Both the position numbers and the translations under genes were made by a program. DNA of 64,000 nt from Candidatus Babeliales bacterium (GTDB lineage Bacteria; Babelota; Babeliae; Babelales; Vermiphilaceae), in assembly GCA_963743635.1 (NCBI GenBank), contig CAVUQO010000003.1:160001-224000 (forward strand), in the 5' to 3' direction. A model generated the notes under the pieces. It did not search any database. It was given only the letters and a program-made list of their open reading frames with translations, and was not told where the DNA came from. Every line of letters begins with the position of its first letter. Positions within the stretch are counted from its first letter, which is position 1. Positions 33,874 through 60,859 of the stretch are shown here, piece by piece.

Positions 33874-34623
33874 ATGAAAATCACAAAAAAACATATTCGT
33901 CTGGTCGGTTACGTTGGCCTCTGTGGGGCAACGTATGCGCTGGCAATGTTTATCGGCAATGGTCTTTTTGGTGTGGAGCGTTATGCCCTGCGTGTTGACG
34001 ATCGTATTGTAACGTCCCTCAATGCTGAGCTTGCTGCTCATGTTCAAAACTTCACGTGCGGCCTTCGGGTGAGACCCGATATCAGCGCACAAGAAATTCA
34101 AAAACAGTTCCCATGGATTCAATCCGTTTCATTTCATCGCATTCCAACCAAAGAGATGCGGGTGGCGGTTATTGCGGATGATCCGCAGATAAAAGTAAAT
34201 ACAGGCGTTATTACGCATCATTTGCGAGTGCTTCCGGCGGTCACCTTTACGGTCACTGCGCTTTCTCAAATTCCTACTTTAGAAGTTAAATTTCCTCACG
34301 CTGAGCGACATGAGATTCCTGATTCGTTTGTTCCTCACGCAAAAACATTAACTGATCAGCGATTTTCTGCTTACACCATTACCTGGATTGATGAGTATTG
34401 TGCCCGACTGACTGATGCTGAGCAGCCTCACTTTTCTATTCTTTTTAATGCCTATTCGATACCTGACGAGGCAATGTTTGCACATTGCTTATCAATTAAA
34501 CAACAACTAGAAGAACGTGGATCTTTTGCGGGACGCAACAAGGGAACGCGCTGGGTTGCGGATGTACGATTTGAGCGTCAGGTAATTGTGTTTTCTGAGA
34601 AAGGGGGGATAGCACATGGTTAA
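33874..34623 (+). CDS. Divergent FtsQ/DivIB-like protein
   Basis: N-terminal TM, FPWIQSVS POTRA-like and DVRFERQVIV motifs; overlaps ftsA start. Confidence 0.6.
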   Translation: MKITKKHIRLVGYVGLCGATYALAMFIGNGLFGVERYALRVDDRIVTSLNAELAAHVQNFTCGLRVRPDISAQEIQKQFPWIQSVSFHRIPTKEMRVAVIADDPQIKVNTGVITHHLRVLPAVTFTVTALSQIPTLEVKFPHAERHEIPDSFVPHAKTLTDQRFSAYTITWIDEYCARLTDAEQPHFSILFNAYSIPDEAMFAHCLSIKQQLEERGSFAGRNKGTRWVADVRFERQVIVFSEKGGIAHG

Positions 34624-35852
34624 GATTTATGCAGATCGAGTGAAGGTTTCAATTGATATTGGTACCACAAAAATTTGCGTTATCATTGCGCAGCAATTAG
34701 ATGCTGATCGCATTGAAGTGCTGGGTATGGGAAAGGCGCCATCGCATGGATTGAAAAAAGGGGTGGTTGTCGATATCGCGAAAACTATTCATTCTATCAA
34801 GCGAGCCGTGCAGGAAGCGGAGTTGATGGCGGGCATTAAAGTGGAATCGGCATACATCGGTATTTCCGGCGCGCATATTCATTCGCTTAATTCGCAGGGG
34901 CTTGCGCCGATTAAACATGGCGATGTTCGTGCAGCTGATATTGAGAATGTGCTTGCCTCAGCGCAGGCAATTCCGGTGCCAGAAGGGCAACAAATTTTGC
35001 ACGTTTTGCCACAATATTACATCATCGATGGCCATGAAAAGGTACAAGATCCTTTTGGTATGCATGGCATTCGTCTTGAAGTGGAAGCTCATATTATTTT
35101 GGGTGCTGTTTCTTCTGTACAAAATTTAGTGAAATGTTGTGAATCTGCCGGCGTAAAAGTTGCCGACGTCGTCTTAGAGCAACTTGCATCGGCAGCCGCG
35201 GTACTCAGCGATGACGAGCGTGAGCTTGGCGTTGGGGTTCTTGATATTGGTGGTGGTACTGCCGATCTTGCATTATACCAGCATGGCAGTATTCGACATA
35301 CGATGGTTCTCGCGGTAGCGGGTAATCATTTTACCAATGACATTGCTATTGGATTGCGCACTACGCTTGAAGATGCAGAACGCGTCAAGCGAGAATATGG
35401 ACTTGCGAGCATTAAATTGCTTGAGCATGATGAACCGATTGAGATTGAAATGGTTCAAGGAAATGCGCGTAATACTGTGCAGCGTTCTGAGCTTATTCAC
35501 ATTATTGAGCCTCGTACGCGCGAACTGTTGAGTTTGGTGCATGAAGAGCTTATCAAGCGCAAGTTACTTTCATTTGTGCCTTCCGGAATGGTAATTACCG
35601 GTGGTGGATCATTGCTTAAGGGAATTAAGGAAGTGGCAGAAGAAACTTTCAATATGCCGGTGCGTCATTGGTGTGCCTCGCATAGATTATGATTTGCCTG
35701 AATCGCTTCACAGTCCAATCTATGCAACCGGGTATGGATTACTCGTACATGCGTTGAAAAAAGAAAAGCTGAGTAGTGTGCATGCGGTGGGTGGTCCATT
35801 GTTGCTGCGCATTGCAGAGCGGATGAAATCATGGGTATCAGATTTTTTCTAG
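34616..35852 (+). CDS. ftsA: Cell division protein FtsA (apparent +1 frameshift at ~35667)
   Basis: IDIGTTKI, DIGGGT, ITGGGSLL; removing one C restores PVRIGVP...YATGYGLL...WVSDFF. Confidence 0.95.
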
Positions 35853-35887
35853 AATTGATAACGGAGTATTAAAAAAGGGAGAACGGT

Positions 35888-37218
35888 ATGATAGAATTTA
35901 AAGTAGATGACCAACCAAAACAAAAAGTTTCCATCAAAGTTATTGGTGTGGGTGGTGCTGGCGGTAATGCGGTTAAAAGAATTATCGAATCTGGGTTACA
36001 TGATAGCATTGAATGCATTGTAGTGAATACGGATGCGCAAGCGCTTGAATTATCAATAGTGCCAACCAAGGTGCAAATTGGTGTTAAATCTGCAAAAGGG
36101 TTGGGAACTGGTGCAAATCCTGAGCTCGGTAAACGAGCAGCAGAAGAAGATATGGATAAAATTTTAGAAGCAGTTGGCAGTGCAGATATTGTGTTCTTAG
36201 CTGCAGGTATGGGCGGCGGTACTGGTTCTGGTGCATTACCGGTTATTGCGCATGCATTGCGTGAAAAAGGTATCTTAACCATTGCGATTGTAACCAAGCC
36301 GTTTGTGTTTGAAGGTAAGCGCCGTATGAAAGTTGCGCAAGATGCAACTGAAGTGGTGCGCAAAGAAGTTGATACGCTTATCGTGATGCCAAATCAAAAC
36401 TTACTCAGCGTCGCTGATAAAAATGTTTCTATGATCGATGCATTTGCAATGATCAATGATGTATTGACGCAATCGGTTAAGGGCATTTCAGATATTATCA
36501 CCAATCCTGGTCATATTAACGTTGACTGCGCAGACGTACGCGCAATCATGAAAGATCAAGGTATTGCAGTTATGGGTACTGGTAGAGCAACGGGCGGTGC
36601 AGGGCGTGGCCGTGAAGCTGCATTGCAAGCAACCTCTTCACCATTACTTGAAAACATGACCATTGAAGGTGCGCATAGTGTTCTGTTAATATTACTGGTG
36701 GCCTCAATCTTGGATTGCATGATATTAGTGATGCAGCATCGGTTATTTACGAACAAGCGCATGAAGATGCGAATATCATTCTCGGTTCAGTCATTGATGA
36801 AGCAATGGGCGATGAGATCTCAGTAACTATTATCGCAACCGGTTTTAAACCAAAAGAGAAGAAAGAGCTTGCTGCAAAGGATGATAAAGCGCCAGCGCGT
36901 AATGAACAAGCGCAATCTGAATCAGTGATCCGCGGATCAGTGCTTGATGCGTACGTTGGTTTCCAAGAAGCTCAGGAAGTGCAAAAAATAGAAGCAGCCT
37001 CTGCGCAAGAGATAGCAGAAACAGTTCTTGAAAAAGAGGTGGTGGTGCCAGTGGAGGCAGCTCCGCAGGCAGCAATTTCTTTGGCAACAAAGGAAGCGGT
37101 TAAGGAAGCGGTTGCCGAGTACGCAACGCATGATATTGGCTATGAACGCTCTGAAGCATTACTGGATCTTGATGTGCCTACTTATTTACGCAAACAACAA
37201 CAAGAAGAACAACTGTAA
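35888..37218 (+). CDS. ftsZ: Cell division protein FtsZ (one base missing at ~36688)
   Basis: GVGGAGGNAV, GMGGGTGSG; adding one A restores LLNITGG; C-terminal LDVPTYLRK. Confidence 0.97.
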
Positions 37219-38583: not shown

Positions 38584-39717
38584 ATGATTACTCAACGCGC
38601 AAAAATTATACTAGCCATCGCAGTGATGCTTGCTCAACCTCTCCAGGCCGATAAAGATAACCTCAGTCCATTAAAGGTTGCGGGAATTATTGGCGGTGCC
38701 GTTGCACTCGGATGCGGAATCGTAGCAGGTATCGATTATTTATCTACCCCCTCAGATCAACGATTGATCGAAAAAGCAGAAAGCGCAGAGGAATATGCGC
38801 AGAATCAATATGGATCTATAACATCTTATTTGTATTCACAGCATTATGCAGCCAAGAATGATGTTCTGCGCACCATCGCTCATAATCATATTCATGAATC
38901 AGTCCACGCATATGTGCGGGGGATGAAAGATGCATTACATAACGTCAGTAAGGCGCGCAGAAATTTGAGCGATCGCATGCATCGCCTAGATCGTAAAGGC
39001 GAGCGCTACAATCATGACTATCGCATCATGGAAGAATATGAAAGCAGTCTTGCTCAGTTAGAAACATCGTTGCGTAAAAGCAGTGATTACCTTGAGCAGC
39101 ACAGCGGATATTTTAACCTATCGGCACGATTTGACGAATTAGACCGATATTATGCAGATGTTCTAACCATAGTCGATCGCTATGGGCACAACCGTGTATC
39201 ATTAGCTCAGTATATGCGAGAGCATATTGCATTGAGCGGTTCGCTTTCTCGCGATACCTATCCCACTATTTCGTACGTTGAAACCTTAAATGATAAAATT
39301 CGTGCACTTGAGCAGGCAATAAAAGCATGCAAAGTTTCCGGTGATCTTGTTACGCAGGCGAGTTCATTGCAGAGTAAGTTGAGCCAGATTCGCTCAGTCT
39401 TATTAGCAGATGATCGTTATGTGTATGAAGTGCAGGAGCGCGAACGAGCACGGCGCGAAGAAGAAAGAATGCGCCTTGAGCGAGAACGTATCGCTGCTGA
39501 GCAACGCCGTGCAGAAGCTGCGCAGCGTCAAGCGTACGCGGCAGAATGTCAAAATCGTGAAATGGCGCGTCAAAATGATCTCTTGCGCGAACAGATTCGT
39601 GAACAAAATCGCATAGACCGCGACTGTTATTATCGGCATAGACATTGCAGCTACCGCTCGTGCTGCTGTGATCAGGTAGACACGTGTCCGGTCATTAAAG
39701 TTGAATTTATGTACTAG
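38584..39717 (+). CDS. Exported helical protein with Cys-rich tail
   Basis: LAQPLQA signal, hydrophobic segment, coiled coil, HCSYRSCCC tail. Confidence 0.8.
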   Translation: MITQRAKIILAIAVMLAQPLQADKDNLSPLKVAGIIGGAVALGCGIVAGIDYLSTPSDQRLIEKAESAEEYAQNQYGSITSYLYSQHYAAKNDVLRTIAHNHIHESVHAYVRGMKDALHNVSKARRNLSDRMHRLDRKGERYNHDYRIMEEYESSLAQLETSLRKSSDYLEQHSGYFNLSARFDELDRYYADVLTIVDRYGHNRVSLAQYMREHIALSGSLSRDTYPTISYVETLNDKIRALEQAIKACKVSGDLVTQASSLQSKLSQIRSVLLADDRYVYEVQERERARREEERMRLERERIAAEQRRAEAAQRQAYAAECQNREMARQNDLLREQIREQNRIDRDCYYRHRHCSYRSCCCDQVDTCPVIKVEFMY

Positions 39718-39818: not shown

Positions 39819-40835
39819 ATGATGAGAAAAACAAGTTCGCTATTTTTCGCCTTGGCAATGCTCGCTCAACCAGTACGCATGTATGCTGAAAGAGAGTGGG
39901 GATTTTGGGATTATGTTGCGGCTGGTGCGGCAGCAGGGGCAGCAGTTTGGGTTGTGACCAGTGATTCTGAATCAACCGAAACAAAACTTGCACGGGAGAC
40001 ATCTCCCTCAACATCTGCATATTCCACTTCGACTACCAACGGACTTCAAAACTATGTCTATAGCGCACATAACCGCGCAAATTCAGTTTTAGCACCAAGT
40101 GCAGCTTTAGTGCAGACTATGCAGTCTACTCAACTGCGTGATGAAGAAAAATTGCGCGCTATCGCACAAAGTGAAGGGACGCTGCCTGCTAAGAAAGCAT
40201 TAATTTATAGTCAAATCAACCACATAGATAATGTATCTCAAGATATAGTTGATGAATGCAGGCGTCAGTTTGAATACACGGGCAACATAGGCCGAGGCGG
40301 TTGTGTGGTTGCATTGCGCGCGATCACCGATACGCTTACAGCATCAAAATCAAGTTTGAGAGAAGCTCCTGGATTTATCGATCGTCATGCTCACTATTTT
40401 AAATATGCAGAACGCGAAGCGCAGTTACGCAAAGTGTATGCGGATGTTATTGCAGCATCGAATAGTTATGCTCCGACCTATCACATTGTGCAGCAAGAAG
40501 TGAATATTATTAAAGCGCAAGGCAAATCAGACTTTTCGGTTCTTTTCTTTGTCGACGAACTTGAAGCCAATATGGAGAATCTCAAAAAAGATATTGATGC
40601 AGGGCAGCAGTACAGTCGCTTGACTAATAGCGCGACCTCTTTATACCGTTCGCTTGCGGTTATTAAAGAAGCTCTTGAGCAAAGTGCCGTATATAAACTG
40701 GAAAATCGTAAGTTTGATGAAGAGTGTGAGCGTAGAAGAAATGGAACGCAGGCACAATTTGAAAGAAACCATAAAAACTGTAGTCCTCAGTGGTGCTATC
40801 ATGGATGCAATTCGTATTGCCCGCGCTGGCACTAA
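39819..40835 (+). CDS. Exported helical protein with Cys/His tail, probable paralog of 38584
   Basis: MLAQP signal; HxxYF...YADV shared; HKNCSPQWCYHGCNSYCP tail. Confidence 0.8.
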   Translation: MMRKTSSLFFALAMLAQPVRMYAEREWGFWDYVAAGAAAGAAVWVVTSDSESTETKLARETSPSTSAYSTSTTNGLQNYVYSAHNRANSVLAPSAALVQTMQSTQLRDEEKLRAIAQSEGTLPAKKALIYSQINHIDNVSQDIVDECRRQFEYTGNIGRGGCVVALRAITDTLTASKSSLREAPGFIDRHAHYFKYAEREAQLRKVYADVIAASNSYAPTYHIVQQEVNIIKAQGKSDFSVLFFVDELEANMENLKKDIDAGQQYSRLTNSATSLYRSLAVIKEALEQSAVYKLENRKFDEECERRRNGTQAQFERNHKNCSPQWCYHGCNSYCPRWH

Positions 40836-40851
40836 ATACCGAAAGTAACGT

Positions 40852-41232
40852 ATGAAATTTCACTTTTATAGTGCGCTTATATTGATTTCATCCACGGTTT
40901 ATGCGATGGATGAAGTTAGATCATCGGTGCCATCTAAAAGAGAAAAAAAGGTGAGATTCGATGAGAGTAAAAATAAAGTACATGTGGTAGAGAAAAATAT
41001 TGCTGTTCCTGAGCGCATGACTCGGGCTCAATATATGGAGCATGTGCGCGTTGGGGCTGAGAAATTGGCAGAACAGGAAGCGGCACGTAAGGCTCCTTGT
41101 ATTTTTCAGCTAAGCACGATTCAGGAAGAAGAGAGTCCGGCAACTCCTCAATTGCCTCGAAGAAAAGTGCAAGCATATGATATCGATTCCATGATGGATA
41201 GGATGCAAACGGTAGGTCTTGGTAAAAAGTAA
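40852..41232 (+). CDS. Small exported protein with RVxF and LxxIxE motifs
   Basis: Signal VYA-MDE; KKVRFDE; LSTIQEEE. Confidence 0.75.
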   Translation: MKFHFYSALILISSTVYAMDEVRSSVPSKREKKVRFDESKNKVHVVEKNIAVPERMTRAQYMEHVRVGAEKLAEQEAARKAPCIFQLSTIQEEESPATPQLPRRKVQAYDIDSMMDRMQTVGLGKK

Positions 41233-41234
41233 CT

Positions 41235-41966
41235 ATGATTATTCATTCTAATCCATTATTCACCATTTATTTTGGCAATGCTCAAGATAAACTCAATCAA
41301 GACGATTATCTCAAGCTTTCTCCCGAAACTAAGTTGCTCTCAGAGCCATCTTTTGAGCATATGAAAGATAAGCTCGGGATCGAATCCCTTATCTTTTTAA
41401 AGCAAATCCATAAAAATACTGGTTATGTGGTGACGCTAGAAATGCGTTCTTTTTTAGAGCGCCCCTTTGCAGTTGAAGGTGATTATTTATTAACCGACCT
41501 TCCCGGCATTGGTATTGGCATTATGACTGCTGATTGTTTGCCAATTATTATTCATGATACGCGCAACAATGCGATTGCTGCTATTCATGCCGGATGGCGT
41601 GGATCCGTAGAGCATATTGCGCAGCGTGCATTTTTACGGATGCAGGAAGCCTATGGAACGCGTGGCGTTGATATTCGCGTCTTTTTTGGTCCATCTGCGC
41701 AGCCATGTTGCTATGAGGTTGGTGAATCGGTTATTGCCTATCGAAATACCGATCTCTTGCTATCAGACTCATTAATAGAACATAATGGAACTGTGTATTT
41801 TAATATTGCTCGCTATAATGCCCTGCAATTTATGGATTTGGGAGTGCCTAAACTTGCATTTCACATGAACTATAATACGTGCACGATATGCGATGTGCGG
41901 TTATGCTCCTATCGACGTGACGGAAAAAGCCCGTATCGGCAAATGACAGTGGTTGCATTACGTTAG
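41235..41966 (+). CDS. pgeF: PgeF/YfiH family protein
   Basis: KQIH, TADCLPI, IHAGWRG, CYEVG, SYRR. Confidence 0.93.
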   Translation: MIIHSNPLFTIYFGNAQDKLNQDDYLKLSPETKLLSEPSFEHMKDKLGIESLIFLKQIHKNTGYVVTLEMRSFLERPFAVEGDYLLTDLPGIGIGIMTADCLPIIIHDTRNNAIAAIHAGWRGSVEHIAQRAFLRMQEAYGTRGVDIRVFFGPSAQPCCYEVGESVIAYRNTDLLLSDSLIEHNGTVYFNIARYNALQFMDLGVPKLAFHMNYNTCTICDVRLCSYRRDGKSPYRQMTVVALR

Positions 41967-45310: not shown

Positions 45311-45838
45311 TTAAAGAGGCTCTTCTTTATTTTCTTTGAACAGATGTTTCGCCATGAGACGCTCTAGCTCATCGATTATGTCTTGTTCAAGTCGCTCTTC
45401 TTCCAATTCTTGCTCAATTATTTGTGCATTGTGCAGAGCATTTGCTTGGTCTATGATTGCTTGCTTTTGCCGCTGAGATGGATTATTAATAAGGACTCGA
45501 CTTCGTTCTCCCAACCCACGCTGTTTTAATGCTTGCGCGCCTGCTTTGTTGAGTTCTTTTGTCTTTCCACTTCTTCCTTCTGCAGGAATTTCGCGTACTT
45601 CTGGCGCCTCTTCACTAAATTTTATCTTAGTTTGACGTGTTGGCTCGTTTTGTATTGGCGCTTGTGCTGATACCGCTTCTTGCTGCGTCGATACCGGACC
45701 AGCTGCTGGGATTACTGATTCTGCCCCTTCTGGGCTTAATCGGAGCGTCTTTTGAAGGTCGTCTTCCTGTTCCATGGCCAAGGTCGCTTGACTGAGGCAC
45801 ATTAATGCTACCATGACTACTTGTTTTAAATTTTTCAT
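45311..45838 (-). CDS. Exported hypothetical protein with RVxF-type motif
   Basis: Signal TLA-MEQ; TKIKFSEEAPEVREI. Confidence 0.8.
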   Translation of the reverse strand: MKNLKQVVMVALMCLSQATLAMEQEDDLQKTLRLSPEGAESVIPAAGPVSTQQEAVSAQAPIQNEPTRQTKIKFSEEAPEVREIPAEGRSGKTKELNKAGAQALKQRGLGERSRVLINNPSQRQKQAIIDQANALHNAQIIEQELEEERLEQDIIDELERLMAKHLFKENKEEPL

Positions 45839-46244: not shown

Positions 46245-46967
46245 TTACTTTAAGAACATTGAAGAAGATTGGCCGCCCTCATTTCTTCTGATGCGCTCTA
46301 GTTCTTGTGCGACTCTTTCTTTTTCTTTCTTGTCGATTGCGATACGGTCTTCCTCTGATGTTATCTGTCTTCCCGGTGAATAGATCTCGCAATAAGCTGT
46401 TATTGGATCTGTTCCTAGATCTTCTTGTTCTTCGCGTCGATCAAAATCTATGTTCTGTTCGAGCGCTTTATTCATGGCTTCAAGTTCCGATTGAGACAGC
46501 TTATTAGGGCGTGCTTCTGTGTTGCTGCTTCCTGGTAGAGCAAATCGTACTTTCTTCTTTGTAGTGGGTTCAGATTTTTTGATCCATTGAGCAATGTTAG
46601 AGCGTATCTCATTGATTTCTTCGGGTAAATAGTGCGCCCTTTGAGTTTGAGCAGAAGAATCATCCTTTGCTGGAGGTAAATTTATAATCATTGTTGCAGC
46701 TACTAAAGGTGCTGGTGATGGGGCTGCTGGCAGAGATGGCGTTGGTCTGCTAGCTGAGCTGAGTATTTGTGCGAACACTGAAGGGTGTGGAACGCCTGAT
46801 GAATCAGAAAATGTACGTGTTGGTTCTTGTACCAATGCTTGGGCTTCTCTTTTTGCTTGTTCTGATTTTTTCCATTTTTCTAGCGCTTTCTCGCTCATCG
46901 CCTCTATTGGTAGGTTGTAGAGCGTGAGTGCGAGCACTGCAAATGTTATTATTTTGAATATTTTCAT
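46245..46967 (-). CDS. Exported Pro-rich hypothetical protein with RVxF motif
   Basis: GGAGG RBS; IEA-MSE; KKKVRFAL. Confidence 0.8.
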   Translation of the reverse strand: MKIFKIITFAVLALTLYNLPIEAMSEKALEKWKKSEQAKREAQALVQEPTRTFSDSSGVPHPSVFAQILSSASRPTPSLPAAPSPAPLVAATMIINLPPAKDDSSAQTQRAHYLPEEINEIRSNIAQWIKKSEPTTKKKVRFALPGSSNTEARPNKLSQSELEAMNKALEQNIDFDRREEQEDLGTDPITAYCEIYSPGRQITSEEDRIAIDKKEKERVAQELERIRRNEGGQSSSMFLK

Positions 46968-47141
46968 AGTGTCCTCCCTCAGTGAAGATGGTTTTTTATC
47001 ATTTATTAAGGCTAAAAATAGATACCATAAGAAGTAGAAAGAGGCCATGAAGGCTGTATCTATCTATATTCCAGCCTACAATGGTTAGGGGTTGGTGTAA
47101 AATGGGCGCTCTGAATCGAGGTTTTCGTCTGGGGATTGGGT

Positions 47142-58968: not shown

Positions 58969-59153
58969 ATCGTACCCTATGAGTTATCCAAAAAGGTATT
59001 AAAAATCGTATCTTTTTCTTTTTTTAGACTACTATAATTCGGAAGAAAAGCAACGTGAGGCAGGCGGGTACGGTTGCCGAGAGCCTCTGAAGATGTAATA
59101 CTAAAGTGCAATAAGTCGATAACCAAGCTATCAAGCGGATGTGGGGTATCATA

Positions 59154-60859
59154 ATGAGAAAAAATATTCTTGAATTAATCCTGGAGTCAGGAGCGGTAAA
59201 CACGCAGCAGATGGCTGAATGCCAGAAGGCAGTGGAGGGGACAAGTCAACGGATTCAAGACTGTCTTATTGAGAAGAAATTCATGACCCCTGAGGCGCTT
59301 GCGCAGATTTATGCCAAATATGCCTCTCTTGATTATATAACCCACGTTACCGACCAAATGGCAGATTTAGCTGTTTTGGCGCGTGTTCCTATGTCCTTTT
59401 TGCGTGAAAACGTGGTCATGCCCGTTACCATCAATGGCCAAACGCATATTCTGACAGCCAATCCACTCAATTTTCAACCCATAGATGATTTGAATCTGTT
59501 GCTCGGCGGGGGCATTCGCCCCGTAGTTGCAACACCCAAGGCCATTCTTGATGGTATCAATAAATATTATCCGCTTGAAGGCGCCAAGCAGATGATCGAA
59601 GAGCTAGAGGAGGAACAGGAAGGGCTTGGTGACGTTGAACTCGCAGACATTGAAGAGCGAGACATAGTGGCCATGGCCGCCGAGGCTCCGATTATCAAAC
59701 TCGTGAATCATATCCTGTATCAGGCAGCAAAACGAGAAGCTTCAGATATCCATATAGAGCCGTTTGAGAAAGAAGTGGCGTGCGATATCGAATTGATGGC
59801 GTTATGTATAGTGTTATGAATCCGCCCAAACGAATTCAAGGTGCCTTGATTTCACGTATAAAAATTATGGCCCATATGAATATTGCTGAAAAACGGATTC
59901 CGCAAGATGGTCGTATCGATTTACGTATTGCAGATAAAGCGATCGATATTCGTGTATCAATGCTGCCTGTTGCTTTTGGAGAACGGATTGTAATGCGTCT
60001 TTTAGATAAATCACGCACATTTGGTCAAATCGATCAAATGGGATTCAGTGAACGAGATCTTCGGGTATTAAAAGAAAGTATCGCACGGCCCAACGGAATT
60101 ATTTACGTAACGGGTCCAACCGGTTCGGGTAAAACCACTACGCTTTATTCGATTCTTGGAAAATTAAATACCCCGGACGTAAATATCATTACCGTTGAAG
60201 ATCCGGTTGAATATCAGATGGCAGGTATCGGACAAGTACAAGTGAGCGATAAAATTGGCTTGACGTTTGCTGCTGCGCTGCGTTCTATTTTGCGTCAAGA
60301 TCCTGATATTATCATGATCGGTGAAACTCGTGATCAGGAAACCGCCCAAATTGCGATTCAAGCATCACTTACTGGTCACTTTGTACTCAGTACTTTGCAT
60401 ACTAATAGTGCGGCAGCTACCATTACTCGATTGCTTGATATGGGCGTTGAGCCATATCTTATTGCATCATCGGTAGTTCTCGTGATGGCGCAGCGGTTGG
60501 TGCGTAAACTATGTGATAATTGCAAAAAGCCTTATAAGCCTTCTGTAGATGTTTTGCGCAGTATCGGATTAAGTGAAAAAGATGCTCAAGGTATTACTTT
60601 TTATGAGCCTGTAGGTTGCGAAGAATGTCTGCGTATGGGATATAAAGGTCGCCTCGCAGTTTATGAATTGATGCAGATGACCACTGAAATTGCAAAATTG
60701 ACCATAGAACGTGCTGATACCGCGCGTCTGCGTAATCAAGCAGTTGCCGATGGCATGACGCTTTTAATTCAAGATGGTTTACGCAAGATTAAAGAAGGTC
60801 TTACTACTATCGATGAAGTGCTCTCCGTTGCATCAATGGAAATTGGTGAAGTCGAGTAG
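59154..60859 (+). CDS. GspE/PilB-family secretion/pilus assembly ATPase (apparent frameshift ~59777)
   Basis: ASDIHIEP / [28 protein letters not shown], CxxC zinc motifs. Confidence 0.93.

Follow-up and report, generated by a model that had tools for sequence, protein, structure and literature searches.

The viral proteins ICP34.5 and DP71L are PP1 mimics. More widely, host short linear motifs placed in pathogen proteins recruit a phosphatase (reviews on such mimicry are PMC8371333 and PMC10807198), and the linker of the HBV core protein carries the PP2A-B56 motif LSTLPE (PMC10970375). ICP34.5, DP71L and HBV core are each directed at one phosphatase. Delivered effectors that bind host PP1 have been described for Phytophthora (Pi04314) and Ralstonia (RipAS) (PMC10273071); Pi04314 comes from an oomycete, whereas RipAS is bacterial but, according to that paper, lacks an RVxF motif, unlike the protein described here. 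Contacts with PP2A subunits and with type-one phosphatases have been reported for the AvrE-family type III effectors (PMC10511319), but these are channel-formers of about 200 kDa for which the available part of that source describes no motif mimicry, and they are unrelated to our protein in sequence and size. Viruses and an oomycete are known to capture PP1 by means of motifs, and viruses to capture B56 in this way. No bacterial protein with both an RVxF and an LxxIxE motif, and no such motif work on Dependentiae, was found in the literature searched, most subscription papers lying outside its scope.

Human PNUTS, a large nuclear scaffold that is disordered when free, has an RVxF motif ending at W401, a phi-phi pair (Y410-F411), a Phe motif (F413) and an Arg motif (E419-R420) (PMC10731240). 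The bacterial protein studied here, P0001, resembles it in having an RVxF motif, a +9/+10 pair and a +18/+19 Glu-Arg in the same register, and differs in the absence of the +12 Phe and of detectable homology and in being bacterial and, by its signal peptide, exported. RepoMan carries both PP1 and PP2A-B56 sites on one disordered chain, tuned by phosphorylation (PMC4703885), as may be the case for P0001; RepoMan has chromosome targeting and a mitotic role, whereas P0001 would comprise 108 mature residues without a targeting domain. The reading we prefer, to which a probability of roughly 0.55 was assigned, is that P0001 is an exported, mostly disordered motif mimic that docks host PP1 and probably also PP2A-B56. 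The case for it rests on the quality of the motifs in one orphan.

P0001 is encoded in the window, the 64,000-nucleotide stretch of DNA that was analysed, which belongs to a genome of 1.45 Mb that is 85% complete; proteins of genomes from the same family bear the name Candidatus Dependentiae. The Dependentiae are a phylum of intracellular protist parasites, of which the cultured member Chromulinavorax replicates in the protist cytoplasm and has signal peptides on 44% of its proteins, a set enriched in orphans (PMC6561590). The ORF at 40852..41232 (+), supported by translation, gene-caller score and a contig of run X2, encodes 126 aa without an internal stop, and it is the single open frame there, the remaining five having 3-13 stops each. 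The length of the ORF, the position of the PP1 segment, the start of LSTIQEEE at 41110 and the numbering of F36, I90 and E92 had all been given by the sequence-only reading and proved exact on translation. The gene is tightly packed, with the previous stop 16 nt before its start and its end 2 nt before pgeF, and it adjoins pgeF and secA, both downstream. One contig of run X2, possibly the source sample, covered 40836-41960 with 0 differences and 0 gaps, and no variants inside the gene were seen in the matching contigs. The coding score from our own gene caller was positive, at 0.16 per residue, a value near the bottom of the range in the window. Elsewhere, at 34616-37218 and 59139-60859, ftsA, ftsZ and a GspE-type ATPase were each split across two frames, probably through assembly indel errors.

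The putative PP1 site, KKVRFDESKNKVHVV at 40945-40989, opens with K32-K33-V34-R35-F36 (40945..40959, +), which has basic residues before it and acidic residues after it and fits the RVxF consensus [K/R][K/R][V/I]x[F/W] (PMC10273071). It is followed by V43-H44-V45-V46 (40978..40989, +), in which V45-V46 lie at +9/+10 from F36, where PNUTS has its phi-phi pair, and by E54-R55 (41011..41016, +) at +18/+19, which corresponds to the Arg motif of PNUTS. The RVxF consensus, the phi-phi pair and the Arg element were thus all matched in P0001. The Phe motif, which is not universal, was absent, position +12 being Lys48 where PNUTS has Phe. The hydrophobic pair downstream of RVxF, and the acidic trail after LxxIxE, had been seen at the outset; both are present and of good quality, and the Glu-Arg is a gain for the PP1 site.

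The candidate B56 motif, recognised by the LxxIxE rules, is L87-S-T-I90-Q-E92-E-E-S95 (41110..41136, +). The residues preferred in B56 ligands are Leu (P1), Ile (P4) and Glu (P6), and binding becomes stronger when P2, 7, 8 and 9 are acidic or phosphorylated (PMC10970375). LSTIQEEES has the preferred residues at P1, P4 and P6, and its four tuning positions (Ser at P2, Glu at P7 and P8, and the Ser of a Ser-Pro at P9) are favourable; the auxiliary feature of basic residues up to about 15 positions upstream of the motif is represented by R79-K80 only. Beside Ser-Pro and Thr-Pro sites, P99-Q-L-P-R-R104 (41146..41163, +) was noticed by eye as resembling the PxxPxR type of SH3 ligand, and is listed as a low-specificity lead. 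An AlphaFold2 model of P0001 reached a mean pLDDT of 58.8 and a pTM of 0.26, and contained a helix at residues 58-78 (41023..41085, +; mean pLDDT 76-87 in blocks over 51-80) between the two sites, predicted with more confidence than any other element, with both motifs outside it. This suggests a chain that is disordered around both motifs and has no folded core, the model being weak evidence as it was made from a single sequence without an alignment.

A Sec signal peptide was predicted by eye and by our heuristic at residues 1-18 (40852..40905, +), ending V-Y-A; it is well formed and of the type typical for the source genome. Cleavage would be expected between VYA and MDE, giving a mature N-terminus Met-Asp-Glu. 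Signal-peptide classes and gene calls throughout came from our own heuristics, not from SignalP. It counts against delivery that a Sec signal alone takes a protein no further than the periplasm, and that the cargo of type II systems is usually folded. The source genome has two secretins and a GspE-type ATPase, and for the phylum a type II system has been described in which gspD is present twice (PMC4776705); P0001 may be delivered past the periplasm. As a separate observation, signal peptides ending in Ala before a Met were common in the source genome and six relatives. There, Ala-Met was followed by Asp, Glu, Asn or Gln 125 times out of 197 (63%), compared with a share of 17-23% for these residues behind other Ala-X pairs or behind a Met whose preceding residue was not Ala, Gly or Ser; 125 of the 183 proteins of this kind are encoded in the source genome. 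Such a Met-D/E/N/Q start resembles the eukaryotic N-terminus that NatB acetylates, and by this analogy these signal-peptide ends might mark proteins of the host cytosol.

The most serious alternative, which we regard as well short of an even chance although it has to be weighed throughout, is that the motifs arose by chance in a fast-evolving, disordered signal-peptide orphan, one of hundreds in Dependentiae, with a Lys/Arg/Glu/Val-rich composition and picked out in a large scan, the protein having a periplasmic, surface or unrelated role. Chance rates were taken from 300,000 shuffles of mature P0001. The pattern [KR][KR][VI]x[FW] occurred at 0.0095 and LxxIxE at 0.016, the two together at 1.4e-4, and RVxF combined with the more permissive [LMFI]xx[ILV]xE at 2.4e-3. 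For comparison, 3,568 proteins were collected (1,437 from the source genome and 2,131 from six relatives, with 400 kb taken from each), leaving out genes 5'-cut by the edges of the 20-kb loci. RVxF with the phi-phi pair at +9/+10 and Arg at +19 was found in 18 of the 300,000 shuffles and in none of the 3,567 other proteins; the strict B56 form L[DEST]xIxE[DEST]3 was found in 21 shuffles and two proteins. These values, each about 1e-4 in shuffles, for three PP1 elements in the PNUTS register and for a near-optimal B56 site, argue against chance, as does the position of both motifs outside the predicted helix, but the strict patterns were set after the sequence was known and very many proteins were scanned, so the rates overstate the case. 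In favour of chance, plain RVxF and LxxIxE co-occurred in 12 of the 3,567 other proteins (2 of the 1,335 with at most 200 aa), and the pair is therefore uncommon, and yet chance does produce it when many proteins are scanned. Roughly one protein in five contained both motifs in loose form (263/1,253 with a signal peptide versus 279/1,500 cytosolic), by our own versions of patterns labelled Choy, Meiselbach, Wakula and ELM, which were also used for the LxxIxE enrichment and the disordered-segment counts below.

The genomic context also counts in favour of chance motifs. In the pgeF loci of 29 relatives, secA adjoined in 18 (plus one weak match) and ftsZ in 4, and a counterpart of P0001 was present in 0 of the 29, from which the gene is, as far as these sequences tell, a lineage-specific insertion. 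A scan of genome contigs for pgeF yielded 19 loci, none of them titled Dependentiae, and these were left out of the comparison. The exported proteins encoded just upstream, at 38584-39717 and 39819-40835, have homologues beside pgeF in 7 of the 29 loci and belong to a conserved, unnamed Dependentiae family. No homologue of P0001 was found in 60 relatives, in metagenome and viral contigs, or in protein sets of 5.8 billion and 1.84 billion, in one of which the protein itself was the only true match among seven candidates. Matches in six of 260 phylum genomes at E 0.02-0.05 were below chance and had the motifs missing, and the single phmmer match, P0002, a repeat-rich animal-like protein aligned over residues 72-106, was judged to be due to chance. 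PHROGs and NCBIfam returned weak matches only. Atlas matches scored 0.76-0.77 and were treated as leads only, with a recognition score below the level of most family proteins. The only Pfam match, at E 0.049, was weak and unrelated, no GADD34-like domain being matched at E 1, and PDB sequences gave no match at E 10; the likeness to GADD34, ICP34.5 and DP71L that had been pointed out initially is not, on these searches, one of homology. As no orthologue was found, selection on the motifs of P0001 cannot be shown.

If such motifs were used by a class of exported proteins, P0001 might be expected to have company, and the surveys gave a mixed picture. Among proteins with signal peptides ending Ala-Met or Gly-Met, [KR][KR][VI]x[FW] was present in 13/276 compared with 65/3,291 others (Fisher p 0.008; 4.8 in shuffles), with the qualification that three of the 13 carriers are paralogues and that one of four control patterns was also above its shuffles in this class (11 vs 5.6). 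The core RVxF in disordered segments was found 6 times versus 3.1 expected in the source genome (p 0.09) and 2 versus 2.6 in the six relatives; an apparent excess of RVxF in the disordered segments of the source genome (26 vs 13) was rejected, being caused by 12 copies of a WD40-like repeat. LxxIxE was not enriched in exported proteins (25 vs 23.4). In 261 genomes, the DNA pattern for [KR][KR]VxFD[DE] had 16 matches, equal to the 16 of the reversed control (12 for the swapped control), and this lack of a phylum-wide excess at the DNA level again favours chance. By eye, 11 of the 16 matches were in long ORFs, 8 of these with signal peptides, and four, including P0001, were in low-complexity tails, whereas of the 12 matches of the swapped control seven were in long ORFs, two with signal peptides and none in a low-complexity tail. 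A DNA pattern for KKV[RS]F, with about 500 matches in 201 genomes, was abandoned, as the matches in the 30 loci inspected were mostly out of frame or BamA-like. Taken as a class, exported proteins give a weak signal for PP1 and none for B56. In the source genome, four other signal-peptide or signal-peptide-array proteins carry RVxF in low-complexity regions or tails, one of them beside LSPINE, which speaks against chance. The proposal of a dual-phosphatase adaptor that prompted this work is a fair hypothesis with partial support: its motifs are of good quality and its setting is a phylum of protist parasites, but LxxIxE lacks enrichment in exported proteins.

Several individual proteins were noted during these surveys, and those at L068 and L073, like the four RVxF carriers just named, are suggestive. 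In the source genome (G000), G000:C2:404671-405021 (-) is a member of an exported-paralogue array, apparently split by a frameshift, whose tail has the B56-type LSPINE closely followed by the RVxF-type KQVSF; judged by these motifs it is a possible second dual-motif protein. A signal-peptide, Ser/Asp-rich disordered protein at G000:C2:54214-54819 (-) has two RVxF-type motifs, KRVKF and RVRF. Near P0001 in the window, signal-peptide proteins without family matches at 45311-45838 (-) and 46245-47048 (-) have TKIKFSEEAPEVREI and KKKVRF, respectively, in low-complexity regions; for the former, one weak relative match was obtained, and the motif was not in it. In a related genome, the protein at L068:3-1745 (-) has a signal peptide and two RVxF-like motifs, after which come an F-box and ankyrin repeats, and could, from this arrangement, link the docking of PP1 to a ubiquitin ligase of the host. 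The 168-aa signal-peptide orphan at L073:1434-1940 (-) ends in KKSKKKVSFDEKITTWF, an RVxF motif with a downstream hydrophobic pair. For another RVxF carrier, P0018, the sole relative found was a 97% copy.

Two further explanations were considered. Localisation signals often consist of a basic cluster followed by a hydrophobic residue. It is conceivable that KREKKVR is a nuclear or membrane targeting signal, or that the B56 site, near-optimal by itself, is alone functional, P0001 then being a single-phosphatase decoy; we consider this improbable, because the +9/+10 hydrophobic pair and the +18/+19 Glu-Arg would have to be coincidence, and LxxIxE is without the class enrichment of which RVxF has a weak one. 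That the ORF is spurious or decaying would agree with the failure of every homologue search and with the low coding score per residue and Atlas recognition score, but it is very improbable given the well-formed, typical signal peptide, the tight packing, the single open frame and the identical sequence in run X2.

The preferred reading, a motif mimic of host phosphatase ligands, can be set out as a sequence of steps. Sec would remove residues 1-18, and vesicles or a type II-like system would take the mature protein across the outer membrane. Inside the cytosol of the host, K32-F36 would enter the RVxF groove of PP1, with V45-V46 at the phi-phi pocket and E54-R55 at the Arg pocket, in a PNUTS-like manner. 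Beyond the 21-residue helix, L87-S95 would enter the B56 pocket, tuned by host phosphorylation at S88 and S95. Since P0001 has no folded substrate-binding domain, its most likely role would be that of a decoy displacing host regulators, or of a tether by which both phosphatases are joined or kept at the surface of the bacterium.

The PP1 half of this hypothesis is the stronger one. Given PP1 docking, the odds that the B56 site also works appear slightly better than even. That P0001 binds both host PP1 and B56 is, from the motifs as they stand, less likely than not when taken as one claim. The most far-reaching version is likewise tentative: a 108-residue protein without eukaryotic ancestry would use convergent linear motifs to bind PP1 and PP2A-B56 at once, as a minimal RepoMan-like switch, and would stand out most clearly in a larger set of exported Dependentiae proteins that dock PP1, a set that would include the second dual-motif protein of the source genome and the F-box/ankyrin protein of its relative.

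How the Dependentiae take over protist cells is an open question, and a host target for P0001, with point mutants by which to test it, would give the class of orphan exported proteins its first molecular point of entry. If the hypothesis is true, P0001 would be a compact tool linking the two main Ser/Thr phosphatases, and may rewire the signalling of the host.
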